A DNA stretch of 64,000 nucleotides from contig OZ024746.1 in NCBI GenBank assembly GCA_964016885.1, positions 58,342,001 through 58,406,000 on the forward strand, read 5' to 3'. Of this stretch, positions 1,348 through 61,367 are shown piece after piece. A model generated the notes under the pieces. That model had not been told where the DNA came from and made no database searches. It was given only the letters and a program-made list of their open reading frames with translations. The first letter of the stretch is position 1. Each line of letters starts with the position of its first letter. The position numbers were made by a program, and so were the translations under genes. The DNA is from Eledone cirrhosa. Its lineage: Eukaryota.

Positions 1348-1350
<3 letters not shown>
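1159..1350. mobile_element. Short fold-back element (ACGAAGGAAATGTGG family) in (TA)n
   Basis: Arms of about 55 bp (TAGGAACCAG...GCTAATTC and its reverse complement); nearly identical to 38063-38297. Confidence 0.85.
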
Positions 1351-1380
<30 letters not shown>

Positions 1381-1385
<5 letters not shown>

Positions 1386-2334
1386 TTGGAGCTCTGAAAT
1401 AGCAATATATATATGGATGTATATATAATGTATTTTGCAATACACTTTATGCTTAATTAAAAGCATTTTGAAGACCGTAAGCTATTGTTTTAAAGTAGTG
1501 ACAAATTCACTTACTTTGATCTCAGTAAACAGGGGAGATGAGCCGACAAGTCTTGTTTCGCTTTGGTTGAAGCTTATCAAGGCCAACTACCCCTCCTGTC
1601 CACCGAGATCTCTGATGTTATATTCTTATAAAAATCTAGTAAATAATCAGGAGCTGATTATGCAGAGCGGTTGTTGGTCAGGCAGAAATTAAAATTAGAA
1701 TTGGAGCTCTGAAATAGCAATATATATATATGGATGTATATATAATGTATTTTGCAATACACTTTATGCTTAATTAAAAGCATTTTGAAGACCGTAAGCT
1801 ATTATTTTAAAGTAGTGACAAATTCACTTACTTTGATCTCAGTAAACAGGGGAGCTAAGCCGACAAGTCTTGTTTCGCTTTGGTTGAAGCTTATCAAGGC
1901 CAACTACCCCTCCTGTTCACCGAGATCACTGATGTTATATTCTTATAGAAATCTAGTAAATAATCAAAATGCTTTTAATTAAGCATAAGTGTATTGCAAA
2001 ATACATTATATATACATCCATATATATATTGCTATTTCAGAGCTCCAATTCTAATTTTTAATTTCTGCCTGACCAACAACCGCTCTGCATAATCAGCTCC
2101 TGATTATTTACTAGATTTCTATAAGAATATAACATCAGTGATATCGGTGGACAGGAGGGGTAGTTGGCCTTGATAATCTTCATCCAAAGCGAAACAAGAC
2201 TTGTCGGCTTATCTCCCATGTTTACTGAGATCAAAGTTTAGTGAATTTGTCACTACTTTAAAACAATAGCTTACGGTCTTCAAAATGCTTTTAATTAAGC
2301 ATAACGTGTATTGCAAAATACATTATATATACAT

Positions 2335-2340
<6 letters not shown>
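1381..2340. mobile_element. Retrozyme-like element with a unit of about 315-317 bp: about 1.9 units plus about 1.2 inverted units; related to the 311-bp unit
   Basis: Direct repeat 1381/1696 and inversion at about 1966. Shares GCTCTGAAATAGC, CATTTTGAAGACC and GAGCGGTTG..GGTC.GGCAGAAATT with the 311-bp unit. (TA)n on both sides. Confidence 0.88.
1541..1584 (-). ncRNA. HHR, U3-A8 core variant (also 1858-1901 minus, 2166-2209 plus)
   Basis: GGCC-TTGATAA-GCTT-caacca-AAGC-GAAA-CAAGACTTG-TC-GGCT; GUC site. Confidence 0.75.
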
Positions 2341-2369
<29 letters not shown>

Positions 2370-2553: not shown

Positions 2554-2628
<75 letters not shown>

Positions 2629-2630
<2 letters not shown>

Positions 2631-3112
2631 AAGGCGGGTAAAATTCCCGAGATCCATGGATGAGTTCTCTCCAGCGGTCTCTGTCGCTCATTATCGCTGC
2701 CATGTCCTGCGTCTCCAACAGACCAGTGTCTCTCCTTAGGGCATCAACATACGTGAACCTTGGTCTTCCTCTTCTAGTGTGTCCATGTAGGGGCTCCCAA
2801 AGGAGCACTGAGTGCAATGTCAACTCTGGATGTCGGTGAGCATGTCCAGCTAACCTCAGACTCCTCTGTGTCACTTTTGAGCTGACTTTTGGGATGCTCC
2901 CATACAGCTCTGAGTAGTTCATCCTCAGTGTATACTGATTAATGTTCAGATCCAACCACAGCATTCTCGTGTAGCACACATCCACCATCTGAGTGAGTTT
3001 CTTGGTCAGTGTCCAAGTCTCAGACCCATACAGCAGCACAGACTCCACTACAGCAATGAAGAGGCGGATTTTCAGGTCTCTACGAAGGTCCGACTTCCAC
3101 ACCGATCTCAAG

Positions 3113-17133: not shown

Positions 17134-17871
17134 AACGAAGGAGTTGTGGAAAGGAACCAGATGGACCATAACGCACCAGAGTAGTCAATATTTAGGGTAG
17201 TAGAGTGGGTAATAGGAGAAAGTATGACCCCGACGGCAGAACTTAAGCCGTTTCGACCGCTATTTCTGGACTAATGTAAGAGGTTTTTTTAGTCTGGTAA
17301 ATAAATAGCCGAACTTTTCAAGGGGTACTTCCTTATATGGGAAGATTGTAGTTGTCAAGATGATCGGTCAAAATTTGTAACAGACACAGAAAAGTCTATA
17401 ATGGCAGTGGGCGTGGAGTGGGGATGGCTGAACTTACCAATCTTACATTCTGATACATCTTTTTCTCATTTTTTATTATATTCTCTTTTATTATATTTTT
17501 TCATTGTCCCCTAATCGCATTTGATTTACTATTTCTATAACGTCCCTCCTCCGCCTTCTAAAGAAACCTTTTTTCGCCTACCTCCACTGGCCTACTTTCA
17601 TACACATTCCTTAGATTTTGCCGGACAGATTTCACCTTCTACGCTTGGCCGGCTCTACCCACTTCCCTATCGTTCTACAGGCAAGTTCAGCCGTCCCCAC
17701 CTCGCAACCAGTGCCATGTTAGACGTTTCTGTGTCTGCTACAAATTTTGACCAATCCTCTTGACAACTACAATCTTCCCATATAAGGAAGTACCCCTTGA
17801 AAAGTTCGGCTATTTATTTACAAGACTAAAAATACTCTTACTTTAGTCCAGAAAAAGCCGGGGCCATACTT

Positions 17872-17929: not shown

Positions 17930-19048
17930 AAGTATGTATATATATATATACTCATACATACCATTATATATATTTTTTCCCCTACACATGTGCATACACA
18001 CACACACGGACTCGCACATATATTCTTACACATCTACAAACACATCTACACACACATAAAAATAATGAAAAAAAATACATGTATGAAAAGATTATAAAGA
18101 TACACCTTGGGCCCTACATGCAAAAATGCCCCTTGGTGAACGTGCTGACAGAGTTGATACTATGTTGCCAACGTGGGTTAATCCACGTATAGACACCTCA
18201 AGTAAGGATACATATGGGGAGTTCATGGTATTAATGTAAAGGGTATGCCCAGACCGTATATAGAAAGTGCATGCAGGATATATAAAAAAATGTATTCAGA
18301 ATATATAAAAAATATACATACATCTGAATTATATAACAAAAGTATACAACTATACACATTGGTTTGTACATGGAAAAATACATGGGGTGTTACATAATTG
18401 AGTGCGTGGAGAGTATGCACATACCACTGAAAAGATACACATGCAGAGAGTGCGTGAACAGGCCATAATGGAGCATGTCACTGTGGTTGAGATAGTGTGC
18501 CTTATCGATGTATGGTAAGTTACTGAATATCCCCGTAGGTTGAGCCACCGTGAACCGGCTCATGCGATGGCGTTGCCTAGGTTGACGTGCCGAGTCCGAT
18601 AGGTAGCATAGGTTGCATAGACTTACCCGACAGGACATACATATATATATATATATATATATGTGTGTGTATATATAGAGATATGTAATAAACAACATAA
18701 GATAATTATTTCATTTACCAGTGGTTTCTTGAAAGCAAACAAAATTTGCTTTCAGTCATCAGAATGAAAAAATCCTGGTGTATTTATTGACAGTGGATTT
18801 TAAAAACAAAAATATAATCTATATGAAAGTGACGCTGGAAAAGGAAGAAGGAAAGGAAAAAAAAGAAACCACTGGTAAATGAAATAATTATCTTATATTG
18901 TTTATTACATAATTAATAAGCTCTGTAACCTATATAGAGCACTCTTTTTTCCTCGACCTACCAAACGGAATTATTTCATTCACATATATATATATATAAT
19001 TATATAATATAATATTATATTATATATATATATATATATACATAATAT

Positions 19049-19231
19049 AATGGTTTCTACTTTTGACACAAGGCCAGCAATTACCCAGTACATTACTGGT
19101 ACTTTATTATATCGACCCCGTAAGGATGAAAGGCAAAGTTGACCTCGGCGGGATTTGAACTCAGAATGGAAAGGGCCGTTACTCTATGCGTCAAAGCATA
19201 ACGGCTGACCCTCTACCGATACTGCCAATTC
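19049..19231 (-). mobile_element. SINE, same family as 25956-26144
   Basis: High similarity to 25956-26144. Confidence 0.85.
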
Positions 19232-19250
19232 ATATACATAATATAATATA

Positions 19251-25200: not shown

Positions 25201-25955
25201 TCCCACTTTAAATCCTGGTAGCCGTTAATTTTATCGTTCTTCTTTTCCTGTGTCAAAGGGGTAAGCTACAATTATAATCAAGCAATATAGTTTTACTTTG
25301 TCGAAACCCACAAGGTTACGCCTGTTGCGTTCTAATTCCGCTAAAGTCTACTCCCTCAAAGTCCTATGGTTGTTCGTATTTCATAGGTGAGAAAAGATAA
25401 AACAGCAGAATGTCTGGCTGGAAGTCGGACAACATTTTCCTAGGTATCAGAGTTTATATACCACTGTATATAACTTTAAATTTCCATTGGTCTATATATT
25501 GTAATATACAAACAATATTGGCCAATATTACTGACTTATTCTTCGCTTCAAACTTTTAGGCAATAAACATATTTTAAAGATAGATATCTAATTCGAACAA
25601 AATTAATGAATGCAAGAATCTTCAAAATAGCGGATCGATGTTGCTACTTTATTCAACAATACCTGCTCAGGTTTCATATTCTCTGAAATCTAACGTTGCC
25701 AGACGTATGCATATGGGTTGAGCCATCTGTGTTGCATCTCGGATTGAGCGAAACTTTGCAAAAGAAATGACGTAGACAGGTGTTTGGAGCAAGAGCAAAT
25801 ATACTCTACTTGTAATACAAAGGCTAAGTTATTAATTTTGTCACGCTGAATCTAATTAAGAATCTAACATATAATAAAGGGGAGAGGTGCGGGAGAGCGT
25901 AGGTTTTATAATTGTTTATCCCGTTAGTAAAATAATTTCGATTACTTTGAATAAA

Positions 25956-26144
25956 TAATAATTTCTACTTTAGGCACATGGCCAGCAATTACTCAGTGCA
26001 TTACTGGTACTTTATTTTATCGACCCCGTAAGGATGAAAGGCAAATTTAACCTTGGCGAGATTTGAACTCAGAATGGCAAGGGCCGTATTTATGCGTCAA
26101 AGCATGGCGTCCGACCCTCTACCGATACTGCCAATCCACCGCCC
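25956..26144 (-). mobile_element. tRNA-derived SINE (octopus-type) with a 14-bp target-site duplication
   Basis: B-box-like GAGTTCAAATC; body TTTGCCTTTCATCCTTACGGGGTCGATAAAATAAAGTACCAG; TTTGAATAAATAAT at 25946 and 26148. Confidence 0.85.
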
Positions 26145-27121
26145 TAATTTGAATAAATAATGAAGGAATATTATGTAATTTATCTACTAACTTTCGTAGC
26201 AATTGATTAAACATAAATATTCTTATATATAAATTATTGCTTATTTTAAGATTCACTTCTTTAAAATGTTCAAATGTCAACTCTTTCGGTTAGTATCCGT
26301 TATATTATAACGCTTGTTAAGTGGCTTATATAAACCTTCATATATTTGCATAGTTATATAAGGTTTATATTTAGGTCACTAATGTTCTACCTTTTCGTTT
26401 TCCTAACATTTTAATTTATTATATATGCAGTTTATATATAATATCGTTTTTTCTTAATGTATGATGAATTATTTCACTGATTACAGAAGAGAGTATAACA
26501 CAGACTTCGTTCAATTTCTGTGTATATTGTCAATTACGATTTCATTTAACGTATCATATCTACAGGCATATATATTTGCGTATAATATCAATATGCACAC
26601 AACACATGCTAACAGAAAACCACCCGAAGAGTGGTTTTTCTGCTAGTTACGTTAAAAGTACGTGTTTGTGGAATACTTAGTCACTGGCTCATTAATTTCA
26701 TAACTATGGTGTTTCTTCATCTCACAACTAGAACACCCAACTTCAAAACCGTTGGAAGTCCATTACACCATATACCAGCGTCATCTTTTCACTTTGCCAT
26801 TCACTGAAATTACTAATTACTTTCCCAAACGTTATCAATCTGCGCCATCATCAAAGATAGAAGTCTCGCCAAGGTCAACTTTACATTTCATCCTTTTGAG
26901 GTCGACAAAAATGTACTGGTGTCGATTCTTCCTCTATATTTATTTCTCTGTTCCGCCCTCCCCGGAGAAAATATGCTGTATTAAGACATGTAGAAGAGAT
27001 GGGCTTCGCTAGTCTTTAAAGAAATTGACAAAGGAACACCGTGTCAATATGGCGCGTCTACGTCTCCAGCAGGAGTTACCAGACTATATATATACAAAGG
27101 AGAGAAGAAGATAGGGAGAGA

Positions 27122-30226: not shown

Positions 30227-30404
30227 GGATTGGCAGTAACGGTAGCGGATCGGGCGCATGCTTTGTAGCATAGAGTTAAGCCCCTTTATGGCCAAATCCC
30301 GCCGAGTTTAACTTTGCCTTTCATCCTTACGGGGTCGATAACATAAAGTACCAGTAATGCACTGGGATAATTGCTGGCCTTGTGCCAAAAGTAGAAACAA
30401 TTAT
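30227..30404 (+). mobile_element. SINE, same family
   Basis: GGATTGGCAGTA...TTTGCCTTTCATCCTTACGGGGTCGATAA...GTAGAAACAATTAT. Confidence 0.82.
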
Positions 30405-30959
30405 TTAATTTGAAACACTGAATGCTTTCACAGTACGTAAAAGGCCTTCAAGCTCATCGTTGTCTTTGCCGAATAGTTTTAGGTTATTCATATAAACTAG
30501 ATGGCACATTTTCCTGTTGTTCTATTTCTGTAAGTTGTTCTGTTGATTTTCATTGTAAGGGGCATTAGAGCTTTGCAAAATATTAGAGGGGAAAGTCAGT
30601 CACCTTGGAAAATGCCACAATCGATTTTAATATTCTTTGAACTGTGTACTCCATTGCAATGATATAACTGGAAATAATATATACGAGAAATTTTGAAGAT
30701 GTCCATCAATTTCAGAATCCATTGATGTTATGACAGTTCTCAATTACGATTAATTCAAATTTTATCTTTACATCAGCATCATTTTTATTCATGTGGGAAA
30801 GTTTGCTCTCTCTCATAAATGCATATATATTCTCCGTGAGAATGGATGTTAGATTCATATCAGTGGTGGATAAATAACTATCTTTATAGAATTTCTGCAC
30901 TTGAAAACTTTCTTTGTATTTATATATACACATATATTCCCAGTGCTTCAAAAGCCGAA

Positions 30960-31462: not shown

Positions 31463-31508
<46 letters not shown>

Positions 31509-31665
31509 TGGAATAAATGCTCTGAAATAGCGATATATATGTGAATATAGACATAGAATATTCGAAAATATTCTGTATGTTTATAATAAACATTTTGAAG
31601 ACCTAATCGCTATAGAATAGAATACGTCACGTATTACAATTAGATTCTCGATAAAAGCAAGGGAA

Positions 31666-31709
31666 GTAAGTCTACGCGTTTCATTCTTGTTAGAATTCAT
31701 CAGGACTAC
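31666..31709 (-). ncRNA. First of 18 minus-strand HHR copies in the array (last starts at 36954)
   Basis: Reverse complement of the 37254 motif, repeated every 311 bp. Confidence 0.92.
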
Positions 31710-34700
31710 ATATCCAGTGCTTTTATCGAGAATGGCACAGCTAGAGACTTATAGAATACTTAGCTGTGTACAGGAACTGGTTTGAAAGAGCGGTTGCCGG
31801 TCCGGCAGAAATTAGAAATTGGAATAAATGCTCTGAAATAGCGATATATATGTGAATATAGACATAGAATATTCGAAAATATTCTGTATGTTTATAATAA
31901 ACATTTTGAAGACCTAATCGCTATAGAATAGAATACGTCACGTATTACAATTAGATTCTCGATAAAAGCAAGGGAAGTAAGTCTACGCGTTTCATTCTTG
32001 TTAGAATTCATCAGGACTACATATCCAGTGCTTTTATCGAGAATGGCACAGCTAGAGACTTATAGAATACTTAGCTGTGTACAGGAACTGGTTTGAAAGA
32101 GCGGTTGCCGGTCCGGCAGAAATTAGAAATTGGAATAAATGCTCTGAAATAGCGATATATATGTGAATATAGACATAGAATATTCGAAAATATTCTGTAT
32201 GTTTATAATAAACATTTTGAAGACCTAATCGCTATAGAATAGAATACGTCACGTATTACAATTAGATTCTCGATAAAAGCAAGGGAAGTAAGTCTACGCG
32301 TTTCATTCTTGTTAGAATTCATCAGGACTACATATCCAGTGCTTTTATCGAGAATGGCACAGCTAGAGACTTATAGAATACTTAGCTGTGTACAGGAACT
32401 GGTTTGAAAGAGCGGTTGCCGGTCCGGCAGAAATTAGAAATTGGAATAAATGCTCTGAAATAGCGATATATATGTGAATATAGACATAGAATATTCGAAA
32501 ATATTCTGTATGTTTATAATAAACATTTTGAAGACCTAATCGCTATAGAATAGAATACGTCACGTATTACAATTAGATTCTCGATAAAAGCAAGGGAAGT
32601 AAGTCTACGCGTTTCATTCTTGTTAGAATTCATCAGGACTACATATCCAGTGCTTTTATCGAGAATGGCACAGCTAGAGACTTATAGAATACTTAGCTGT
32701 GTACAGGAACTGGTTTGAAAGAGCGGTTGCCGGTCCGGCAGAAATTAGAAATTGGAATAAATGCTCTGAAATAGCGATATATATGTGAATATAGACATAG
32801 AATATTCGAAAATATTCTGTATGTTTATAATAAACATTTTGAAGACCTAATCGCTATAGAATAGAATACGTCACGTATTACAATTAGATTCTCGATAAAA
32901 GCAAGGGAAGTAAGTCTACGCGTTTCATTCTTGTTAGAATTCATCAGGACTACATATCCAGTGCTTTTATCGAGAATGGCACAGCTAGAGACTTATAGAA
33001 TACTTAGCTGTGTACAGGAACTGGTTTGAAAGAGCGGTTGCCGGTCCGGCAGAAATTAGAAATTGGAATAAATGCTCTGAAATAGCGATATATATGTGAA
33101 TATAGACATAGAATATTCGAAAATATTCTGTATGTTTATAATAAACATTTTGAAGACCTAATCGCTATAGAATAGAATACGTCACGTATTACAATTAGAT
33201 TCTCGATAAAAGCAAGGGAAGTAAGTCTACGCGTTTCATTCTTGTTAGAATTCATCAGGACTACATATCCAGTGCTTTTATCGAGAATGGCACAGCTAGA
33301 GACTTATAGAATACTTAGCTGTGTACAGGAACTGGTTTGAAAGAGCGGTTGCCGGTCCGGCAGAAATTAGAAATTGGAATAAATGCTCTGAAATAGCGAT
33401 ATATATGTGAATATAGACATAGAATATTCGAAAATATTCTGTATGTTTATAATAAACATTTTGAAGACCTAATCGCTATAGAATAGAATACGTCACGTAT
33501 TACAATTAGATTCTCGATAAAAGCAAGGGAAGTAAGTCTACGCGTTTCATTCTTGTTAGAATTCATCAGGACTACATATCCAGTGCTTTTATCGAGAATG
33601 GCACAGCTAGAGACTTATAGAATACTTAGCTGTGTACAGGAACTGGTTTGAAAGAGCGGTTGCCGGTCCGGCAGAAATTAGAAATTGGAATAAATGCTCT
33701 GAAATAGCGATATATATGTGAATATAGACATAGAATATTCGAAAATATTCTGTATGTTTATAATAAACATTTTGAAGACCTAATCGCTATAGAATAGAAT
33801 ACGTCACGTATTACAATTAGATTCTCGATAAAAGCAAGGGAAGTAAGTCTACGCGTTTCATTCTTGTTAGAATTCATCAGGACTACATATCCAGTGCTTT
33901 TATCGAGAATGGCACAGCTAGAGACTTATAGAATACTTAGCTGTGTACAGGAACTGGTTTGAAAGAGCGGTTGCCGGTCCGGCAGAAATTAGAAATTGGA
34001 ATAAATGCTCTGAAATAGCGATATATATGTGAATATAGACATAGAATATTCGAAAATATTCTGTATGTTTATAATAAACATTTTGAAGACCTAATCGCTA
34101 TAGAATAGAATACGTCACATATTACAATTAGATTCTCGATAAAAGCAAGGGAAGTAAGTCTACGCGTTTCATTCTTGTTAGAATTCATCAGGACTACATA
34201 TCCAGTGCTTTTATCGAGAATGGCACAGCTAGAGACTTATAGAATACTTAGCTGTGTACAGGAACTGGTTTGAAAGAGCGGTTGCCGGTCCGGCAGAAAT
34301 TAGAAATTGGAATAAATGCTCTGAAATAGCGATATATATGTGAATATAGACATAGAATATTCGAAAATATTCTGTATGTTTATAATAAACATTTTGAAGA
34401 CCTAATCGCTATAGAATAGAATACGTCACGTATTACAATTAGATTCTCGATAAAAGCAAGGGAAGTAAGTCTACGCGTTTCATTCTTGTTAGAATTCATC
34501 AGGACTACATATCCAGTGCTTTTATCGAGAATGGCACAGCTAGAGACTTATAGAATACTTAGCTGTGTACAGGAACTGGTTTGAAAGAGCGGTTGCCGGT
34601 CCGGCAGAAATTAGAAATTGGAATAAATGCTCTGAAATAGCGATATATATTTGAATATAGACATAGAATATTCGAAAATATTCTGTATGTTTATAATAAA

Positions 34701-37253
34701 CATTTTGAAGACCTAATCGCTATAGAATAGAATACGTCACGTATTACAATTAGATTCTCGATAAAAGCAAGGGAAGTAAGTCTACGCGTTTCATTCTTGT
34801 TAGAATTCATCAGGACTACATATCCAGTGCTTTTATCGAGAATGGCACAGCTAGAGACTTATAGAATACTTAGCTGTGTACAGGAACTGGTTTGAAAGAG
34901 CGGTTGCCGGTCCGGCAGAAATTAGAAATTGGAATAAATGCTCTGAAATAGCGATATATATGTGAATATAGACATAGAATATTCGAAAATATTCTGTATG
35001 TTTATAATAAACATTTTGAAGACCTAATCGCTATAGAATAGAATACGTCACGTATTACAATTAGATTCTCGATAAAAGCAAGGGAAGTAAGTCTACGCGT
35101 TTCATTCTTGTTAGAATTCATCAGGACTACATATCCAGTGCTTTTATCGAGAATGGCACAGCTAGAGACTTATAGAATACTTAGCTGTGTACAGGAACTG
35201 GTTTGAAAGAGCGGTTGCCGGTCCGGCAGAAATTAGAAATTGGAATAAATGCTCTGAAATAGCGATATATATGTGAATATAGACATAGAATATTCGAAAA
35301 TATTCTGTATGTTTATAATAAACATTTTGAAGACCTAATCGCTATAGAATAGAATACGTCACGTATTACAATTAGATTCTCGATAAAAGCAAGGGAAGTA
35401 AGTCTACGCGTTTCATTCTTGTTAGAATTCATCAGGACTACATATCCAGTGCTTTTATCGAGAATGGCACAGCTAGAGACTTATAGAATACTTAGCTGTG
35501 TACAGGAACTGGTTTGAAAGAGCGGTTGCCGGTCCGGCAGAAATTAGAAATTGGAATAAATGCTCTGAAATAGCGATATATATGTGAATATAGACATAGA
35601 ATATTCGAAAATATTCTGTATGTTTATAATAAACATTTTGAAGACCTAATCGCTATAGAATAGAATACGTCACGTATTACAATTAGATTCTCGATAAAAG
35701 CAAGGGAAGTAAGTCTACGCGTTTCATTCTTGTTAGAATTCATCAGGACTACATATCCAGTGCTTTTATCGAGAATGGCACAGCTAGAGACTTATAGAAT
35801 ACTTAGCTGTGTACAGGAACTGGTTTGAAAGAGCGGTTGCCGGTCCGGCAGAAATTAGAAATTGGAATAAATGCTCTGAAATAGCGATATATATGTGAAT
35901 ATAGACATAGAATATTCGAAAATATTCTGTATGTTTATAATAAACATTTTGAACACCTAATCGCTATAGAATAGAATACGTCACGTATTACAATTAGATT
36001 CTCGATAAAAGCAAGGGAAGTAAGTCTACGCGTTTCATTCTTGTTAGAATTCATCAGGACTACATATCCAGTGCTTTTATCGAGAATGGCACAGCTAGAG
36101 ACTTATAGAATACTTAGCTGTGTACAGGAACTGGTTTGAAAGAGCGGTTGCCGGTCCGGCAGAAAATTAGAAATTGGAATAAATGCTCTGAAATAGCGAT
36201 ATATATGTGAATATAGACATAGAATATTCGAAAATATTCTGTATGTTTATAATAAACATTTTGAAGACCTAATCGCTATAGAATAGAATACGTCACGTAT
36301 TACAATTAGATTCTCGATAAAAGCAAGGGAAGTAAGTCTACGCGTTTCATTCTTGTTAGAATTCATCAGGACTACATATCCAGTGCTTTTATCGAGAATG
36401 GCACAGCTAGAGACTTATAGAATACTTAGCTGTGTACAGGAACTGGTTTGAAAGAGCGGTTGCCGGTCCGGCAGAAATTAGAAATTGGAATAAATGCTCT
36501 GAAATAGCGATATATATGTGAATATAGACATAGAATATTCGAAAATATTCTGTATGTTTATAATAAACATTTTGAAGACCTAATCGCTATAGAATAGAAT
36601 ACGTCACGTATTACAATTAGATTCTCGATAAAAGCAAGGGAAGTAAGTCTACGCGTTTCATTCTTGTTAGAATTCATCAGGACTACATATCCAGTGCTTT
36701 TATCGAGAATGGCACAGCTAGAGACTTATAGAATACTTAGCTGTGTACAGGAACTGGTTTGAAAGAGCGGTTGCCGGTCCGGCAGAAATTAGAAATTGGA
36801 ATAAATGCTCTGAAATAGCGATATATATGTGAATATAGACATAGAATATTCGAAAATATTCTGTATGTTTATAATAAACATTTTGAAGACCTAATCGCTA
36901 TAGAATAGAATACGTCACGTATTACAATTAGATTCTCGATAAAAGCAAGGGAAGTAAGTCTACGCGTTTCATTCTTGTTAGAATTCATCAGGACTACATA
37001 TCGAGAATCTAATTGTAATACGTGACGTATTCTATTCTATAGCGATTAGGTCTTCAAAATGTTTATTATAAACATACAGAATATTTTCGAATATTCTATG
37101 TCTATATTCACATATATATCGCTATTTCAGAGCATTTATTCCAATTTCTAATTTCTGCCGGACCGGCAACCGCTCTTTCAAACCAGTTCCTGTACACAGC
37201 TAAGTATTCTATAAGTCTCTAGCTGTGCCATTCTCGATAAAAGCACTGGATAT

Positions 37254-37297
37254 GTAGTCCTGATGAATTCTAACAAGAATGAAACGCGTAGACTTAC
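37254..37297 (+). ncRNA. Type I hammerhead ribozyme of the 311-bp unit (plus copies at 37254, 37565, 37876)
   Basis: GTAGTC-CTGATGA-ATTCT-aaca-AGAAT-GAAA-CGCG-TA-GACTTAC: canonical core, GUA site, palindromic ACGCGT stem III. Stem I is extended by ATTCTCGATAAAAGCA/TGCTTTTATCGAGAAT. Confidence 0.92.
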
Positions 37298-38062
37298 TTC
37301 CCTTGCTTTTATCGAGAATCTAATTGTAATACGTGACGTATTCTATTCTATAGCGATTAGGTCTTCAAAATGTTTATTATAAACATACAGAATATTTTCG
37401 AATATTCTATGTCTATATTCACATATATATCGCTATTTCAGAGCATTTATTCCAATTTCTAATTTCTGCCGGACCGGCAACCGCTCTTTCAAACCAGTTC
37501 CTGTACACAGCTAAGTATTCTATAAGTCTCTAGCTGTGCCATTCTCGATAAAAGCACTGGATATGTAGTCCTGATGAATTCTAACAAGAATGAAACGCGT
37601 AGACTTACTTCCCTTGCTTTTATCGAGAATCTAATTGTAATACGTGACGTATTCTATTCTATAGCGATTAGGTCTTCAAAATGTTTATTATAAACATACA
37701 GAATATTTTCGAATATTCTATGTCTATATTCACATATATATCGCTATTTCAGAGCATTTATTCCAATTTCTAATTTCTGCCGGACCGGCAACCGCTCTTT
37801 CAAACCAGTTCCTGTACACAGCTAAGTATTCTATAAGTCTCTAGCTGTGCCATTCTCGATAAAAGCACTGGATATGTAGTCCTGATGAATTCTAACAAGA
37901 ATGAAACGCGTAGACTTACTTCCCTTGCTTTTATCGAGAATCTAATTGTAATACGTGACGTATTCTATTCTATAGCGATTAGGTCTTCAAAATGTTTATT
38001 ATAAACATACAGAATATTTTCGAATATTCTATGTCTATATTCATATATATATATATATATAT

Positions 38063-38293
38063 AACGAAGGAAATGTGGTAAGGAACCAGGTGGACCATAA
38101 CGCACCAAAGTACTCAATACTTGAGGTAGTAGAGTGGGTAATAGGAATCAGTAAGACCCCGACAGCTGAGCTCAAGCCGTTTCGACGGCTAATTCTGGAC
38201 TAAAAAAAAACATTTTTTTTTTTTTTTTTTTTTTTTTAGTCCAGAATTAGCCGTCGAAACGGCTTGAGCTCAGCTGTCGGGGTCTTACTGGTT

Positions 38294-38297
<4 letters not shown>
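38063..38297. mobile_element. Short fold-back element, same family as 1159-1350
   Basis: Same outer ends as 1159-1350; the hairpin centre is an A-run/T-run; TA flanks. Confidence 0.85.
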
Positions 38298-38924: not shown

Positions 38925-39351
38925 TGCTGTAGTGGAGTCTGTGCTGCTGTACGGGTCTGAGACTTGGACACTGACCAAGAATCTCACTCAGATGGTGAAT
39001 CGGTGCTACACGAGAATGCTGAGGATGGCTCTGAACATAAATCAGTATACACTGAGGATGAAAAACTCAGAGCTGTATGGGAGCCTCCCAAAAGTCAGCT
39101 CAAAAGTGACACAGAGGTGACTGAGGTTAGCTGGACATGCTCACCGACATCCAGAGTTGACATTGCACTCAGTGTTCCCGTGGCAGCCCCTACATGGACA
39201 CACTGGAAGAGGAAGACCAAGGTTAACGTATGTTGATGCCCTAAGGACAGATACTGGTCTGTTAGAGACGCATGACGTGGAAGCGATAATGAGGGTCAGA
39301 GACCGCTGGAGAGAACTCGTCCATGGATCTCGGGAATTTTACCCACCCTAG
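38925..39351 (+). mobile_element. 5'-truncated RTE LINE, same family as 2629-3113
   Basis: [14 protein letters not shown]...GRGRPR...REFYPP*, with an in-frame stop at about 39118. Confidence 0.88.
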
Positions 39352-40164
39352 AAAAAATATATATATACAGTATATATCATGCAAGGATATATGTATATAA
39401 ATTATATATATATATCTAATTTATATACATATATCCTTGCATGATGTGTCTAATGTTTTGCTAGTTACCTGCGCTTTCGCCGCTAGCTAAATTGTGAGGA
39501 GACTGCTTATAGAATAAATTCTTGACAATGTAAGGCATGTGTCTGTTATAAATTCTTATGTATTGCTGAAGAAGAAAAGCTACGAGACTTATGTCACCTC
39601 GATGAACCTGTCGAAAACGTTCAGAGTCGAGAAGAACCAGAACGGTTTACAATTGACATGCTGATCTCGACCTAAAGATCTCCCCTCGTAGATATATATC
39701 TGTCATTGCTGTTGTTATCAACCATTCGCTGTATATTATATATCATATATTATATATTTACAATGCTGGCTTTTCCATTTAACTCGGAGTGATTGATAAT
39801 CATGCAGATTAACCCTTGATATATGAAAGGACACGTTGCCCTTTTCTAGAACGTTGCCGCGATAATTTATTCATTATCTGCCAAAGCATCAACAATTGAA
39901 TGCCAATTTGTTATTAATTACCAATAAGAATGTCAAACAGACACACGTTAGCTATTGTCCTGAATATGGCCAGCAAACTGCTGCGGAATTACTAATTAGA
40001 TTTGTACGAAAGGAACTGTTTATCACACCAACAATAAATGAATGATTTTCTTTTTGTTTTTATTTTTATTAGGTATGTATTAGTTAGGTGTAACGATATA
40101 TAAAACTCCAATAAAATACAATCACATTTTCGCTGTCCTTAAAATTTCTCGCCTTGTTCCAAGG

Positions 40165-40497
40165 GCGTGCATTGGCAGATCCGATAGTGCGTTGGACAAT
40201 AAGCTTTCCGGCATAGAGTTACCGCTCTTTACATTATAATTTCAAATACCGCTGAGGTTAGCTTCACCCTTCATGTTTACGGGTCGAAAAACTAAAGTAG
40301 CAGTACCGAACTGGGGTCGATTTAATCGACCTTCCACTCCACTTCAAATTGCTGGCTTTGTGGTAGACATCATTATTAATATTATAAATCCCGCCGAGGT
40401 TAACTTTGCCTTTCATCCTTACGGGGTCGATAAAATAAAGTACCAGTAATGTACTGGGTAATTGCTGGCCTTGTGTCTAAAGTAGAAACAATTATTA
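40165..40497 (+). mobile_element. Two tandem SINE copies (the second is 5'-truncated)
   Basis: The family body is seen at about 40240-40375 and about 40386-40497. Confidence 0.78.
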
Positions 40498-41384
40498 ATA
40501 TTATAAATAGAGTTTTCCTTTATGCGTTGTAAATTTCACTTTCATTTGTCTTATATTTCGCCTTTGTATTGTTTGCAGGATAGTGCGCCCTCGTGGGCAA
40601 TAAATGTAAGATCTATTAGTAATCATATTATTGTTAGTTTGTTATTGTATTGCCATTATCAGTAGTCTCAGATAGCAATCTGTTCCTACTAATCAAATAT
40701 GCTTATTTTTAAAGAAATAACTAGATAAATAATAATTCAGCGGGAAGTTCATGTATTGTTTTTGTATGTTTTATGTTAAAAGGAATGTGTGTGTATAATC
40801 ATCATCTTCATCGTCATCATCATCAGAGATAATGTTCAGAGATGACTTAAACATTATATATTACATTTCTTGCTTTCTTGCAGTGAATTCCTTCCTGTAA
40901 ACAGAACAATAATTGTATGAGGATGACAAAGACACTGTGTAATAGTGTTGGTTATTATAAGAGAATATATTTCATTGCAGCATAATTGGTGTTTCTGAAG
41001 AGACAAGCGATAATATTTGCACGTCATCCATACACACTCAAAATATGCGACACTTCATAAATACATATAATTACTAATTTATTTATGTCACAGAAGGCAG
41101 CATCTTTGGATTTACTTCTGCAAATTGATATCCAAATTCAATATATGGCGTAGCCAGTCAGATTTCGCCTAGTTTTGGAGGACTAATCCCCCACCCCCCC
41201 AAAAAAAATAATCAAAAACAGTACTTACATACTGTTTATTTTAACGATCCCACAATGATTAATGCTACGTACTACCTCGTAAGAACTTCGACTCAGTACA
41301 GGAAAATTGGTAAATAATAGTTTCGAATTTAGACAGAACACAATGAAAATAGGATTTGTCCATTAAATCTACCCCATTATATTA

Positions 41385-41612
41385 CATTATCTGATGGATC
41401 CCAGAAAGATGAAAAGCAAGTTTAACCTCGTTGGATTTGAACTCAGAATATTAAAGAAAGGTTACTGTTACTGAATAATGGTTTCTTATTTAGGCACAAG
41501 GCCAACATTTCTGGTCATGGGGAAAGTCGATTAAATCGACCCCAGTGCATCAATAGTGCTTTATTTTATCGATCACGTAGGATGAAAGGCAAAGCCACCC
41601 TCAGCGGGATTA
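41385..41612 (-). mobile_element. Degenerate SINE copies
   Basis: GGATTTGAACTCAG and GATGAAAGGCAAAG motifs. Confidence 0.6.
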
Positions 41613-42604
41613 GAGGTTACTAAATTATGATTGACAATTTTATTCGCCGCAATATCAGAGATTCTCGAATGCATATATAGTTAATTAATTTAAAGTTTTC
41701 ACAAGTCCAGAGGATCGACAGGCTGAACTTTAGCAAGGATTACTTGGTATTCATTAAATGAGAATACATGTCTCCCTTTTAGGCTGTACACCAATCTCTG
41801 GCAAAAGTAAGCCTCAGCCGCAGCTGGCCCTTGCTTCCTTTCAGTTGGGCGAGATGGAGACAGCTGAAATAAAGTGTCTTGCTCATGGATTCAATGTACA
41901 CTAAGTATTAGACTGTGCACATTTACACCTATTGATCATCAGTTTGAATACAGCAGTTTTCTGGGTAACGTTATAGATATACTGGAGGTTTTTTTGTTGT
42001 TATCTATAGCTACTAGTAACTATGTTGAACGACAATCTAGTATTGACCATCATTTTACACAGACATAGTGCATCTAGGAACGCATCTACAATAGTTATAT
42101 CTTGCATTTTTTTAAGAAAGGAAATAAATGATGGGAGATTTAGCATTTAAACCGGCCATATCAGGCCAGTATTCTCTTAGCTCTTTCCGTTCAAACTTGT
42201 GTAATGGTATTGTGCCATTCAAACTTGTGTTATGGTATTGTTCTCAAAATAAGTAACATCAAAATCTCAGCTTCGATATTATGTGAGATAAGTATGTGAG
42301 ATAAAGCCTTAACTGCGAAAATACAATAGTATATATAGAGAGTAATGTAAATACTACAAGGTTAACTAAAATATTTAGCAGTTCAAGGGGTCATTTCAAG
42401 CACATATATTGACGGGTGATAGACCACGTTGTATCTATTAGTTGATATAATTGCATAACATTTCGAAAATATTTTCACAAATCATTAATTTGAAACTGAT
42501 ATTAAAAAAACTCAGCATGTTAATAAATAAGGAATTATTCAGAATATGACTGAGTAGACAAGGTCTTGTATAATATGGGCAAGCAGTGTGCCTGTGTATC
42601 TGTA

Positions 42605-44208: not shown

Positions 44209-44264
<56 letters not shown>

Positions 44265-46180
44265 AAGTGTGTGGTAAAATACTAAGTGGACCCTAACCCA
44301 CCAGAGTACTCGATACTTGGGGTAGTATATATAAATATATATATATATATATATGTGTATGTGTATGTATGTGTGTTTGTGTGTGTTTGTGTGTGTGTGT
44401 GTATGTGCGTGTGTGTGGGTATGTGGGTATGTGTGTGTATGAATGACCGGATGCACATATATACATATTAGTGAGGGTGTAAATTCTTCGTTGAATTCAG
44501 TAAGGTGAAGAATTTTGGGTTTTTTTAATGTAAATTTTATATTGATTATATAATATGATTTGATTTGAAATTACATTATAATTGTACTGTGAACATTAAA
44601 ATTATAACAAATAGTATAGCCAAAATGGGTAACTCATTCTTGCAAGGGAAGGATTATTGTTCATAATATTTAAATCATTTCAAGGAAACAAAACGTATAT
44701 TCCCAGTGTAAGGACTATTGAGAGATATATTAATATAAACCGCAACTTAAACCAGACTAAATTAAGAGATTATCTTTGGATATTAAATGAAGGCGTAATT
44801 AAATTTGATATCATCTGGAAAGATCTTGACTGATGCAACCCGAACGTGGACGTACCTTGACATGCCCGCTTATGTAATCCGGAAGAAAATGATATGATTG
44901 AATCACAAACAATAAAATATAATATATCTCTGAATATCTGATCGAATGTTTTCCGCGCAATGTTACTCGCTTCTCAATTTACATCATCACTATTAAGTTA
45001 AAGTCTGTTTATGACCCTACACATGTTGTTTGTCTCCAGGTCAACGCTGACATAATGTTTCTAGGAGTATATTAACAAATGTATCTTTCCTTTTATTAGG
45101 ACTATAAAAATCCTATTTGATTTGGAAATCCGAGTGTTATTTCCAGCAGATATAGAGAGCGGGGAGCCACTCATTCATTTGTCCATTTTTCATGATGTTA
45201 CTATATGGCGTGAAACAGATAGTTTGGAGCGTTTGCAATGGTCAAGTTTAATGCTATGTGTTGTCTTAGATGAAGTGCAATTACGGAAAAGGGATACACA
45301 ACAACATTAACAACAACAGAAACCAAACAATGACAAAGCAAAAACAAGTACAACAACTAAAAGAGCAATGACAATAAGGAAACCAATTCAAAATCTACGT
45401 TGTGAATCCATTATTGAAACAAAGAGTAATTTTGAAGAAAGGAGTATATAAGTTTTATTATTATCATACATGAGGGACATTTTCACACATTCACTCACAA
45501 ACACATACAAATGCACACACACACACAAAGATGCTCACATACAAAGATACAAACACACACACACAAAGACGTACAGTCAACATATGCACACGCATCCACA
45601 AACAGAAAGACATTTGATCGATTACACAAACACTTACTGAAACAACCATCATAGATTTTCATAGAATCACTGTTACACACACACGAATACACACACACGC
45701 GCACACACACACGCGCATACACACACACACGGGCGCGCGCGCGCGCGCATACACGTACAGATTCGCATAAATATGCACGGAAACAGACGCAAACACTAAG
45801 TACCCACATCATACACAGAGACACATACATACACAGCGTTCAGGACGCGACATTAACCAGACACACACTTCGAAGTCTTGAACAAAATTTTGGCAAGCCT
45901 CGTTTCCAAGATCAAAGTAGGCCATGTTGCTACTGTTGAATGATTTATTTTCTCTGTGTTTCTCAGATTTCCTTGGCAAGTTACAGTAAAGGTTAATATC
46001 GAAAGTTCACCAGTGAAAACATCGCTCGGCTTCAATCAAAGCGTTTTGTGTGAGATCAAAGGAGCTAGGCGCCGGCAATCGATAAGAATCGAGTAGAATC
46101 GTATTGACAACGACAATGTATGATGTATTTATATGATTTACACAGACACACATTCACATACAAATCGACGCATAAATATA

Positions 46181-50748: not shown

Positions 50749-50857
50749 TATATATATATATATGAGTGTGCAGTATGAACTCTGGATGTCGGTGAGCATG
50801 TCCAGCTAACCTCAGCCTCCTCTGTGCTACTCTCGAGCTTACTCTCCCTCTCCCCCC

Positions 50858-50989: not shown

Positions 50990-53887
<2,898 letters not shown>

Positions 53888-55471: not shown

Positions 55472-55516
<45 letters not shown>

Positions 55517-55570
55517 CGTTTCTGAATTTGTTTAGCAAGATTCTTAATCTGAAATCGTGTGTTGAAACCG

Positions 55571-55828
55571 ATATTGTTATACTTTGGGAGGGTCATGTTG
55601 CCAATAAGAAACACACGCACCGGTTGCTTTCACTTCAATTTATTATATATTTATAAATTTATAAATTTACAAATCTACAAATTTATAAATTTCTGGTTGG
55701 TTGGTTGGTTCCACAACCAGATAGTTGTTTATATATAGTCATAGTCCTTTCGTCACACACTCTGTGACCTCTTCAGTGACTGGGGATTCCTCTCTTTGTT
55801 TCTGTGCCTTTCCTTTCTTCTGTCCTAC
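55571..55828 (-). repeat. Inverted 5' pseudo-LTR of the PLE
   Basis: 258-bp reverse complement of 58775-59032; I noticed 4 substitutions. Confidence 0.93.
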
Positions 55829-55913
55829 ACACAACAACGATAACACACACGGAAACAACAACAACACACATCAACAACAGCACACATCAACAACAACAAC
55901 ACACACGCATTCA

Positions 55914-58610
55914 ATGCCTCTCACCACCACCACAATCTTAACAAACACACAGACACAGAAAACAAGTAATGACAGTAGCACAGAAATCACAGAAATAAGG
56001 GAAAGTAATAGGATTAAAAGGAGAAGGGAGACTAAGGACAAAGAGAATAACCAAGACGAACACACAGACACACAAAATAGGGTAGATAACAACATTGAGC
56101 CAGTGGAAAGAGATAGGAGTAATTATGAGAGACATAGAAACAACCATGAGGCTGTTGGTGGAAATAAAAATAGAAACAACACAACTAACAATAACAATAG
56201 CACTAGTACACATAAAGCAGCAGCCTGGAACTCTCCGTTTTATAATCCCTCCGATAAATCATTCGACCTGCGACGAGTCCACGCCACGACTTTACCATTT
56301 AACAAACGCACGCAGTTGCCGTCGCAGGTCGATGAACAAACAGAAGCACAATTTAGTATAGCTAGATCCGAACTTAGAAATATTATAGAACAGTATAGCA
56401 AGAAGCATAATAGAATAGAGGCCCAGCAACTGGGAGAAAAATCTGCAAATAGCTTGCGTAAGCTCATGCAGCGCTCACGTAATAGAGAGATAGCATGCTT
56501 TCCAACAGACAAGTCTGGTAGAATGTCGGTTGACAGCCTGCCAAACTACATCCAGGCAATGCAACCCCACATCACTAACACAAGAGAGGTAACACCACAG
56601 GAGCATGAGGATAGAGAAAAAGCCCTCAATGCCCATATGGTGGTGTGGACGAATATAATGCAGCCCAACAAAAGGACTGCCAACAACTTCCAGGCCTGGA
56701 ACAATGACGTGCCGGCGTTGTATGGGCTTCGAAAAGACCATAAAACGGGCTGTGACCCTGTCGCGGGACCACCAACACGGCCAGTCTGTGGAGCTAACAT
56801 TGCTAGTAACTACAGACTGTCCTACTTCCTCTCCCTGATCATACGCCCCATCATTGAGATGTCCCCAGATGTATGTGACAGCACGGAGGACCTCCTCAGC
56901 AGAATCGGCGTGGGTAACCGATCTGGGGACCTAACAAACTGCATAATAGGCAGTATGGATGTTGTGTCCATGTATCCATCTATTGACGTGGATTTTGCTG
57001 TGGAGAAATGCGTAGAAATGATCAGCGAGAGCAAGGTTGAGTTCCGTGGGATTGATACCAGTGAGCTGGCACTTCTACTTAAGCTTACCCATAGTAATAG
57101 TTACCTAGACACATATGACCTTAGCAACCTGTGCCCTACAAGACCAGCAAGAGGCAGACCACCTACCATTACCTCAATGGCCAAGAAAATCCACACAGAT
57201 AGATGGAACGGGTGGACCAGAGCCATACGGACACCCGAAAACTACGATGAACTGAAGAAAATGATTGCACATGCGGTAGGGGCCAGCATAAAATTAACCC
57301 TTAAGGAACATATGTTCAAATTTAATGGAAAAACATATGCCCAAGAGGAAGGAGCAGCCATTGGTGTTAGTATTGCAGGCGACATAGCTAACTTATTCAT
57401 GGTATGGTGGGACAGTAGACTTAAACTTAAACTTAAAGAACAATTAGAAGACAGCTTAACCTTGATAATGTACTCCCGCTACGTAGATGATATAAACATC
57501 GTAGTTAAGACACCCCCACTAGAGAACAGTCAGGAACTAGAGAAAAACACAATGGAAAGCATTCAGCAAATAGCAAACTCCATCCACCAGAGCATTAGAG
57601 TTACTATAGACTACCCAAGTAGACACCCCAACCATCGATTACCTGTACTAGACACAGAGTTCTGGTTAGATACCATTAACAACCAAAAACAAATCCTCCA
57701 TTCCCATTATGCCAAACCCATGACTTCCAAACATCTGATGCACCGAAACTCGGCCATTTCGGACCATACCAAAATCAACATACTGATTGCGGATTTGGTA
57801 CGGGTGATGAGAAATGTGTCCCGCATGTGCAACCCCGAAGAACTAGAGAGACACATACAACACTTTATGCACCGTATGCAGTTCTCTGGCTACAATCAGA
57901 GAGATAGAATCAGAGTGTATAGAGGAGCCAGAACCAAATGGGAAAAAATGGTAAATAATGACATAAATGGGACCTGCCCCTTGTATAGGAGCAAATTTTG
58001 GAATAGAATAGAAAGAACTAGGAACAAGGCCAATAGAATAAACTCATGGTATGATAGCAATAAATACCAGAGTGTAATGTTCATCGATACAACCCCTAGA
58101 GGCGAACTAGCCTACATATTTAGAAGGGCCCTAAATAAACATAAACTCAATATTAAGATAGTAGAAAGACCAGATACCTCCGTAAAAACATTTATTAGCA
58201 AAACATACCCGTTCCAAAGACCCTCATGTATAGATAAGAAATGTATAACCTGTAAAATAAGCCCCCATATTAACTGTAAAACTAGAAATGTAGTGTATAG
58301 CATAAGATGTACTGAAGGACAATGTAGAAACAAAAATATAGTGTACATGGGTGAGACAGCTCGTAGTATAGGGGAACGGATAAATGAACACTGGCGAGAC
58401 CTTCAAGATAATAAAGAATCATCTGTTCTCCACCAACATGCTAAGATAGAACACAAGGGTAAATTAGAGAACATAGAAATAAAAATAGAATCTACACACA
58501 GAAAAGGTGCAAAGTTTAGACAAATTACAGAGGCAATAAACATAAAAGAATTACAACCAAAATTAAATAGAACATATGAGTGGAACAGCAACATCACAAC
58601 TTACAATTAA
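55914..58610 (+). CDS. PLE reverse transcriptase-GIY-YIG endonuclease polyprotein (about 898 aa from the first in-frame ATG)
   Basis: Uninterrupted ORF. RT motifs: PTDKSGR, LYGLRKDHK, PTRPVC, SMDVVSMYPSI, EGAAIGVSIAGDIANLFM, RYVDDI, LPVLDTEFW, YAKP. Cys-rich linker CIDKKCITC..C. GIY-YIG-type NVVYSIRC..C..VYMGET..ERINEH..EA. The ORF-track start at 55725 lies inside the inverted pLTR, so the true start is uncertain. Confidence 0.92.
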   Translation: MPLTTTTILTNTQTQKTSNDSSTEITEIRESNRIKRRRETKDKENNQDEHTDTQNRVDNNIEPVERDRSNYERHRNNHEAVGGNKNRNNTTNNNNSTSTHKAAAWNSPFYNPSDKSFDLRRVHATTLPFNKRTQLPSQVDEQTEAQFSIARSELRNIIEQYSKKHNRIEAQQLGEKSANSLRKLMQRSRNREIACFPTDKSGRMSVDSLPNYIQAMQPHITNTREVTPQEHEDREKALNAHMVVWTNIMQPNKRTANNFQAWNNDVPALYGLRKDHKTGCDPVAGPPTRPVCGANIASNYRLSYFLSLIIRPIIEMSPDVCDSTEDLLSRIGVGNRSGDLTNCIIGSMDVVSMYPSIDVDFAVEKCVEMISESKVEFRGIDTSELALLLKLTHSNSYLDTYDLSNLCPTRPARGRPPTITSMAKKIHTDRWNGWTRAIRTPENYDELKKMIAHAVGASIKLTLKEHMFKFNGKTYAQEEGAAIGVSIAGDIANLFMVWWDSRLKLKLKEQLEDSLTLIMYSRYVDDINIVVKTPPLENSQELEKNTMESIQQIANSIHQSIRVTIDYPSRHPNHRLPVLDTEFWLDTINNQKQILHSHYAKPMTSKHLMHRNSAISDHTKINILIADLVRVMRNVSRMCNPEELERHIQHFMHRMQFSGYNQRDRIRVYRGARTKWEKMVNNDINGTCPLYRSKFWNRIERTRNKANRINSWYDSNKYQSVMFIDTTPRGELAYIFRRALNKHKLNIKIVERPDTSVKTFISKTYPFQRPSCIDKKCITCKISPHINCKTRNVVYSIRCTEGQCRNKNIVYMGETARSIGERINEHWRDLQDNKESSVLHQHAKIEHKGKLENIEIKIESTHRKGAKFRQITEAINIKELQPKLNRTYEWNSNITTYN

Positions 58611-58774
58611 GGACAAAATGAAAACACACACACACATAGAAAAAACAACCAACCAACAACCAATAACATGTAAATAAATAAACAAATAGATAAATGAACA
58701 CAAACACACACAGACACCCGGATGTGGCGCATGCGCAAACTGAGCACACAACACACACACAGAAACAAAATGGC

Positions 58775-59028
58775 GTAGGACAGAAGAAAGGAAAGGCACA
58801 GAAACAAAGAAAGGAATCCCCAGTCACTGAAGAGGTCACAGAGTGTGTGACGAAAGGACTATGACTATATATAAACAACTATCTGGTTGTGGAACCAACC
58901 AACCAACCAGAAATTTATAAATTTGTACATTTGTAAATTTATAAATTTATAAATATATAATAAATTGAAGTGAAAGCAACTGGTGCGTGTGTTTCTTATT
59001 GGCAACGTGACCCTCCCAAAGTATAACA

Positions 59029-59032
<4 letters not shown>
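58775..59032 (+). repeat. 3' pseudo-LTR of the PLE (duplicated part)
   Basis: Follows the stop codon and a CA-rich 3' UTR; ends GTATAACAAT at (AT)n. Confidence 0.9.
58822..58866 (+). ncRNA. Minimal type I hammerhead ribozyme in the PLE pLTR (mirror copy 55737-55781, minus strand)
   Basis: AGTCA-CTGAAGA-G-GTCACA-gagtg-TGTGAC-GAAA-GGAC-TA-TGACT: stem I AGTCA/TGACT, stem II GTCACA/TGTGAC, very short stem III. Confidence 0.75.
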
Positions 59033-60783: not shown

Positions 60784-60786
60784 ATT

Positions 60787-61233: not shown

Positions 61234-61308
61234 ATATATATATATATATAAATATATAACAAGAAGTGTAAGTGAACAGGTTAAACTTAACTTCGTTTAT
61301 CCATATTC

Positions 61309-61367
61309 GGTGTTATATATATTTCGGTGAAAGCCATTATATAACAGCTATGACCTCATCAGACAGC
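61309..61367 (-). ncRNA. HHR with an (AU)n stem III
   Basis: GCTGT-CTGATGA-GGT..AGCTGTTA-ta-TAATGGCT..ACC-GAAA-TATATA-TA-ACACC; stem I is imperfect. Confidence 0.65.

Follow-up and report, generated by a model that had tools for sequence, protein, structure and literature searches.

A 316-bp repeat of Eledone cirrhosa with a U3-A8 hammerhead and its 311-bp sister, retrozymes probably mobilised by a Penelope-like element

The window analysed here is a stretch of 64 kb from the genome of Eledone cirrhosa. Near its left end, between two (TA)n tracts, an insertion was identified which consists of 1.9 head-to-tail copies of a short unit and an inverted arm of 1.2 copies (1381-2340). The unit is 315-317 bp long; TRF gave a period of 317, and the head-to-tail joint was found at 316 bp in contigs of the runs X1, X4 and X7. 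The following features make up the insertion:

1350..1380: (TA)n tract, the target, at the left 3' end of the 316-bp insertion
1381..1695, minus strand: unit copy 1, 315 bp, RNA sense minus, 3' end running into (TA)n
1381..1404, minus strand: tail of the type of Penelope-like elements (PLEs), at the left end only, at least 24 nt and up to 33 nt
1696..1966, minus strand: unit copy 2, cut, 5'-truncated where the inversion begins
1964..2346, plus strand: inverted 5'-truncated arm of about 1.2 units, 3' end at 2337-2346, merging with (TA)n

The tail may extend to 33 nt, because an internal AT run merges with the target. The arms are joined by a 3-nt overlap, TCA, at 1964-1966. In the list of open reading frames, no frame of 120 codons or more lies inside 1381-2340. 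The marks of a non-LTR retrozyme at the sequence level, a non-coding tandem unit with a hammerhead and a joint recovered in three runs, were found, and on these grounds the 316-bp repeat would function like a retrozyme of this type. The inverted arm is unlikely to be an assembly fold-back, as 11 of 289 places differ between the arms, whose ends and flanks are also unlike. The three copies differ from each other at 8 of 269 and 11 of 289 places, yet all of them share 1601C and 1604C, which are absent or minority letters in the contigs of X1 and X4. This fits a single template and an older insertion, be the template a circle or a multimer.

The preliminary description of this DNA had claimed a hammerhead with a U3-A8 pair, a TTGATAA core and a GUC site. 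In agreement with this, a type I hammerhead was identified in copies 1 and 2, and a related motif in the inverted arm:

1545..1590, minus strand: type I hammerhead of copy 1, core U3-U-G-A-U-A8-A at 1580-1574, stem II at 1573-1560, stem III at 1556-1546, predicted cut after C17 at 1545
1862..1907, minus strand: type I hammerhead of copy 2, core at 1897-1891, C17 at 1862
2160..2205, plus strand: inverted-arm hammerhead with the U3-A8 core at 2170-2176 and U in place of G10.1, likely damaged
1518..1610, minus strand: 16-bp helix extending stem I, with arms 1518-1533 and 1595-1610
1398..1488, minus strand: predicted multi-hairpin 3' domain, with AUAGC/GCUAU closing its three hairpins

Read on the minus strand, both tandem copies have the core TTGATAA (1574-1580 and 1891-1897), GAAA and the GUC site, with a stem II of 4 bp carrying a CAACCA loop and with ACAAGACTTGT as stem III. 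The 3-8 position is a Watson-Crick pair in both, three stems are formed and stem I is open, as in the type I class. In the inverted copy the core is intact, with the G10.1-C11.1 pair lost (1573 C>A in the numbering of copy 1) together with two pairs of the closing helix. The Rfam model HH9 was aligned to the hammerhead over all 77 positions with 24.6 bits (E 1.8e-4), the gathering score being 52, and in this alignment the bulge and loop 2 fit the HH9 layout. At the Rfam gathering threshold the 64-kb window gave no match, a result which bears on the Rfam families and not on the hammerhead class. Patterns for the U3-A8 hammerhead were matched at 26 metagenome loci and at least 123 viral loci; none of the 149 loci listed was a full type I hammerhead or resembled the unit beyond the pattern, and the scaffold pattern had no match among the metagenome and viral contigs. 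That the 3-8 pair tolerates U3-A8, as the preliminary description stated, has already been published (PMC3088659, PMC4209133). In the available parts of these papers, U3-A8 is reported to occur in nature and to be active in vitro (Perreault et al. 2011, PMC3088659), and about 1,300 hammerheads with this pair are reported from Cercyon PLEs of Schistosoma mansoni (Cervera and de la Pena 2014, PMC4209133).

The 317-bp unit folds better on the hammerhead strand (z -6.0) than on the opposite strand (-2.0), while for the 311-bp unit described below the opposite strand folds better (-4.8 versus -3.5). The G residues at 1600, 1601 and 1604 of the window form G.U pairs on the hammerhead strand. Within the same 16-bp helix, A-to-G changes on the RNA strand were noticed at 1600-1604 and 1917-1921, one of them in a UAG context; the three copies have them in common, while in X1 and X4 they are rare or absent. 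They could be fixed A-to-I edits, and tolerance of G.U pairs accounts for them equally well.

In the best predicted fold of the monomer, U3-G5 are paired with stem III, and the active fold lies 6.5-7.4 kcal/mol higher in a nearest-neighbour model that contains no tertiary contacts; for a C3-G8 version made in silico this cost is 4.3 kcal/mol. Stem III is near-palindromic, and its self-duplex was calculated at -8.7 kcal/mol compared to +1.2 kcal/mol per hairpin. By rough arithmetic, with tertiary contacts aside, two copies together would regain through the self-duplex about 11 of their 13 kcal/mol. This predicted behaviour fits the dimer mode which has been described for animal hammerheads (PMC4209133, as far as its available text goes). 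The U3-A8 hammerhead of the 316-bp unit is considered more likely than not to be active. In the accessible part of one study on Xenopus retrozyme dimers, one of nine was reported to be cleaved in vitro.

Variation within the family was followed with contigs mapped on 1381-1697, 1,582 from X1, 41 from X4 and 3 from X7, in which depth does not equal copy number. The variants are unphased contig letters from libraries of unspecified type, and X1 is possibly not independent of the window. In the search of runs, 15 of 24 matched part of the window and none matched half of its words; no RNA run was among the holders listed. Of these runs, X1, X4, X7 and X16 were used for the mapping. No read of X16 aligned, from raw reads sampled at about 1 in 100, which is too sparse to count against the repeat. 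None of the 25 variable sites falls in 1554-1592 (p 0.015); the 13 core bases are invariant, being too few for significance when taken alone (p 0.27). The stem III partners 1549 and 1553 change from A-U to U-A at an equal depth of 2078.9 with three contigs each, corresponding to about 29%, and in a sub-family of X1 (a loose end of 3 contigs) the third pair of stem II, 10.3-11.3, is swapped with U3-A8 retained. Loop III is longer in a loose end of X4. Variation at 1518 (20%) and 1610 (18%), which pair with each other in the 16-bp helix, is unphased. Of the 10 variable sites in the 3' domain, seven are unpaired (p 0.048), two preserve a pair and one disrupts a pair. The covariation among copies that had been proposed as a check was thus found as compensatory changes in stem II and stem III of the contigs with U3-A8 kept, the events being few and unphased. 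A depth peak of X1 at 1425-1468 was considered as copy number or truncation, and this reading was not adopted.

A second, longer insertion in the window is composed of a sister unit of 311 bp, with which the 316-bp unit shares four exact blocks:

31505..38043: sister 311-bp insertion, 17.7 copies (sense minus) and 3.4 inverted copies, with a 37-nt tail at the left end and the junction overlap TATC
1464..1476, minus strand: block B1, 13 nt, found unchanged in the 311-bp unit, in a single-stranded linker of the fold
1391..1403, minus strand: block B2, 13 nt, within the tail
1681..1691, minus strand: block B3, 11 nt, directly 3' of the farther insertion end on the RNA
1664..1673, minus strand: block B4, 10 nt

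The sister array consists of 21 repeats without coding DNA between the copies, and only 4 single differences were found in the 19 units compared. This marks the sister as a very young insertion, and rolling-circle copying has its best case here. Its hammerhead is minimal, with C3-G8, ACGCGT, a GUA site, a 5-bp stem II and a 6-nt stem III. No third sister was found in the rest of the window with a two-sequence profile (best E 0.17).

The claim that the two units share blocks in the same order is borne out by a global alignment of the 317-bp and 311-bp units, in which 202 of 323 columns are identical with a score of 239, compared to 76 +/- 10 and at most 110 in 300 shuffles; the four blocks of 13, 13, 11 and 10 nt keep their order. 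All of them lie within positions 69-198 of the monomer, B3 and B4 just past the tail. Identity amounts to 99/131 (76%) at 69-198 and to 103/192 (54%) elsewhere, shuffles giving 47%, where the limits of the region were picked after the blocks were known. The ribozyme region is identical at 36 of 61 positions. The folds of both units contain the same series of helices, including the 16-bp helix that closes the ribozyme. This helix stands at the same place in the 317-bp and 311-bp units and differs by double-sided changes; what had been described as a different long hairpin is in fact one homologous helix. Covariation between the sisters is modest, with p values from 0.004 to 0.20 in 12 tests over three alignments and two directions. 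Pairs altered between the sisters remained paired modestly more often than after a redraw of the variable sites, with p 0.004-0.14 when any pair is counted and 0.01-0.20 when double-sided Watson-Crick pairs are. A count based on helix registers set by hand, 18 double-sided changes among 46 kept pairs of 52, was set aside, the AT-rich registers being ambiguous and one of them shifted by a base. The earlier statement that structure is kept while sequence turns over is supported, by a sister covariation whose strength depends on the alignment and by compensatory changes within the family. From these alignments the ribozyme and the 16-bp closing helix have probably diverged in place and were not swapped.

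When the insertions are read on the hammerhead strand, both arms begin at a short overlap and end 3' in (TA)n in both sisters. The ends lie at positions 131-140 and 164 of the 317-bp monomer and at 131 and 168 of the 311-bp monomer, and the tail is the offset between these two ends, 24-33 nt in the 316-bp insertion and 37 nt in the sister. The nearer 3' end is located in the loop or the 3' arm of the last hairpin of the predicted 3' domain, and the right end of the 311-bp sister stops in the UCAC loop of the last hairpin. In ten contigs of X1 the unit breaks off at 1405 and is followed by an AT run with mixed flanks; the 1405 end is therefore used at further loci.

Partial tandems, an inverted 5'-truncated copy, a tail of 30-40 bp and a (TA)n bias have been described as features of PLEs (Craig et al. 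2021, PMC8557442, available part). Both sisters contain the corresponding inverted 5'-truncated arm, the tail at one end and the microsatellite target. For the PLE PAc, an in vitro assay has identified the tail as the stretch between two internal start sites of the reverse transcriptase (RT), in an AC-rich stem-loop; the main substrate was uncut RNA, and hammerhead mutants were inserted normally, so that cleavage was dispensable (Frangieh et al. 2024, PMC11167929, as given in the accessible text). Since the blocks B1-B4 ring the shared ends and the PAc tail lies between RT start sites, the conserved blocks are likely to be signals for a borrowed reverse transcriptase, which was one of the two roles proposed for them earlier. 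The arms cross two and one ribozyme sites in the 316-bp insertion and 21 in the 311-bp sister; copying therefore used a circle or an uncut multimer as template, unless the array expanded afterwards. Taken as a whole, mobilisation of the 316-bp retrozyme by a PLE is considered probable.

The window itself contains an element of this kind:

55514..59029, plus strand: TA-inserted PLE with an unbroken frame of 961 codons (55725-58610) containing the RT and a CX4CxxC linker, a C-terminal GIY-YIG-like domain, and hammerheads in its repeats at 58827 (plus strand) and 55776 (minus strand)

Its 5' repeat is inverted, and its tail of about 59 nt is longer than the retrozyme tails. The best match of the 961-codon frame is an Octopus vulgaris protein with 69% identity, the next having 49%, which fits an octopod as the likely host. 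The match to RVT_1 remained under the Pfam cut-off. At the C-terminal end, the CX4CxxC linker, the GIY-YIG-like and the CCHH motifs were read by eye, and the GIY-YIG label rests on these motifs, because Pfam called no family in that region. By the definitions available from Craig et al. (PMC8557442), the sequence of the element is Neptune-like. The element shows that TA-targeting machinery is present in the genome, and in its role as partner it is a candidate. In the same orientation, neither the 317-bp nor the 311-bp unit gave a significant match to the repeat or the tail of this PLE (p 0.30-0.78), and no similarity of the 3' ends of the units was found to it, the sole PLE with an open reading frame within the window. 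One of 24 local alignments, between the 317-bp unit and the PLE repeat, reached p 0.005; it is in opposite orientation and AT-rich and was ascribed to composition. The 8-mer ATTTCAGA is common to the PLE tail (about 55530-55545) and to B2 (1391-1403), a post hoc observation for which the local alignment is not significant. A Naiad element was rejected as the local partner, since Naiads are described, in the accessible part of PMC8557442, as having an N-terminal nuclease and no canonical hammerheads, whereas the nuclease of the window PLE is C-terminal. A Naiad partner may be present elsewhere in the genome.

Several other repeats in the window are inserted in TA tracts or lie close to them:

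51071-53530 and 60786-61235: a further family inserted in TA, whose arms are inverted and whose tail measures about 90 nt
1160-1350, 38064-38297, 17135-17870, about 44225-44330 and about 62240-62470: a small TA-flanked family with inverted arms

In the first family a hammerhead-like motif with C3-G8 and a long stem II was found, and open frames of 120 codons are absent from it. In the small family no hammerhead was found. One of its copies adjoins each retrozyme insertion, and these two copies differ at 2 of 138 bases; the simple reading is nested use of one TA tract. A further hammerhead-like motif was noticed on the minus strand at 61300-61370, with a CTGATGA core at 61362, beside a TA run. 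Repeated fragments at 2628-3111, 38925-39352, 53665-53885 and 50768-50843 translate to a peptide resembling the C-terminal part of an RT; Pfam gave only a weak match to DUF6451, and the fragments probably belong to a truncated LINE family. Copies of a dispersed repeat, about 190 bp in length, lie at 62599-63739, 19042-19234, 25951-26148, 30227-30405, 40168-40499 and 41474-41614, with several tandem copies close to the end of the window.

Compared to metazoan non-LTR retrozymes, as described in the available parts of PMC7229834 and 10.64898/2026.07.22.740005, the 316-bp unit lies in the range of 150-450 bp, has a GC content below 50%, is a non-coding tandem with one type I hammerhead per unit and a self-paired fold, and occurs in a genome with PLEs. 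It differs from them by the U3-A8 core and the 11-nt palindromic stem III, and it is known here from DNA alone. Its (TA)n target, inverted arm and tail are undescribed for retrozymes in the accessible text of both sources. The compensatory core pair is shared with Cercyon of S. mansoni (PMC4209133) and with the hammerheads of Perreault et al. (PMC3088659), and Cercyon is likewise linked to PLEs. The S. mansoni motifs are, in the part of PMC4209133 at hand, minimal and mostly single, whereas the 316-bp unit has a full stem III, a long stem I, a stem II of 4 bp with a 6-nt loop and a tandem arrangement. With the EN+ PLEs Neptune, Hydra and Naiad (PMC8557442) and the Poseidon element PAc (PMC11167929), as far as the available text describes them, it has in common the partial tandems, the inverted 5'-truncated copy, the tail of 30-40 bp at one end, the (TA)n bias and the hammerhead in the repeat; unlike these, it consists of the repeat only and has no reading frame. 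It also resembles Chlamys MRC1, a non-autonomous PLE derivative with multicopy head-to-tail insertions (Craig et al. 2021, PMC8557442, in part); elements of that type are algal, mostly without hammerheads, and resemble an autonomous family at their 3' end, whereas such a resemblance was not found in the window. On the basis of these sequence features, the 316-bp family joins the non-LTR retrozymes as a new member. In a partial coverage of the literature, no paper was found that deals with octopus hammerheads or with footprints of tail and inversion on retrozymes; supplements and repeat databases may contain the families described here.

The reading that we consider likely is that the 316-bp repeat is a non-autonomous retrozyme, copied through its shared 3' domain by the reverse transcriptase-endonuclease of a TA-targeting PLE. 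The hammerhead strand of the unit would be transcribed, probably by read-through. The U3-A8 hammerhead would then cut after GUC, probably as a double hammerhead formed via the palindromic stem III, giving unit-length RNA which, by analogy to the family, a host ligase may circularise. The PLE protein would bind the conserved domain of about 130 nt, with B1-B4 and three hairpins, and cut (TA)n, and reverse transcription would be initiated from the two DNA ends, at a pair of internal RNA sites separated by about 24-37 nt; of this step, the two ends and the tail are observed. Each cDNA would run beyond the length of a single unit, the template being circular or an uncut multimer, and joining at the 3-4-nt overlap would yield the inverted arms, a layout which is observed and for which the route is deduced. 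Because recognition by the protein would involve the 3' domain and leave out the ribozyme, the ribozyme half would be free to drift under structural constraint, as reflected in C3-G8 versus U3-A8.

One different view is that the unit is the terminal repeat (pLTR) of a PLE family, left as truncated inverted fragments, with the tandem derived from tandem pLTRs or unequal crossover and without any circle. PLE fragments are reported with an identical layout (PMC8557442, PMC4209133), retrozymes have been reported as related to pLTRs, and the preference of PAc for uncut RNA (PMC11167929) would suit this view, all as far as the available parts of these sources go. However, head-to-tail closure of the unit at 316 bp is seen in contigs of three runs, the sister has its repeats without intervening coding DNA, and the unit does not match the window PLE, which makes a pLTR origin improbable. 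The conserved blocks could instead form an internal promoter, for Pol III or another polymerase, which was the second role proposed for them earlier. B1 is single-stranded and exactly kept between the sisters, and the 317-bp unit contains one pair of A- and B-like boxes with one mismatch each. None of the shared blocks contains this pair, and the 311-bp unit lacks a counterpart of it, so that no A/B-box pair as in Pol III SINE-like elements is common to both; the blocks coincide with the insertion ends, and according to the accessible text of a review metazoan retrozymes are apparently without promoters. A promoter function of the blocks is therefore regarded as very improbable.

The difference between the two hammerheads had been described as a different ribozyme on the same scaffold. 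A modular exchange of the ribozyme hairpin through template switching, with an origin of U3-A8 separate from the 3' scaffold, is suggested by the difference in class (a 4-bp stem II and 11-nt stem III versus a 5-bp stem II and 6-nt stem III) and by loose ends in X1 and X4, relatives which are alike over 1420-1516 and diverge after it. The same position of the ribozyme and the same closing helix with double-sided changes speak against it, and the ribozyme region is about as diverged as other paired parts, its identity not falling under the 54% of the non-conserved half; such an exchange is held to be unlikely. That the U3-A8 hammerhead is a dead relic, with an apparent covariation caused by palindrome repair at the DNA level, is also unlikely, though slightly less so. 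The predicted misfold of the monomer and the dispensable cleavage in PAc insertion (PMC11167929, available part) would agree with a relic. The G.U pairs on the hammerhead strand, where the other strand would have A.C, the double-sided swaps in stems II and III around a constant core, and the reported activity of U3-A8 hammerheads in vitro (PMC3088659, available part) are evidence against it. Short palindromes can become homogenised at the DNA level, which adds to the case for a relic.

Beyond the likely copying by a PLE, a wider and tentative proposal, to which we give less than an even chance, regards animal retrozymes as RNA parasites of Penelope-like elements, built from two parts. A loading domain of about 130 nt would set two RT starts, while the ribozyme half would turn over, down to the 3-8 core pair. 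Whole arrays, like the 21 near-identical units of the sister, would be laid in one event by both-ended rolling-circle reverse transcription of a ribozyme-made circle and not by satellite growth.

A PLE origin of retrozymes has already been proposed in print, in the part of that literature available, and the mobilisation of animal retrozymes by PLEs was previously argued from shared hammerheads, co-occurrence and pLTR similarity. The U3-A8 pair is a known natural variant and adds little to this; the useful part is the shared insertion ends. Here, two diverged sisters display the PLE footprint directly, with the same two 3' ends, and the likely cis signal is narrowed to about 130 nt. With this, both the partner and the signal come within reach of in vitro PLE assays of a type already in use.
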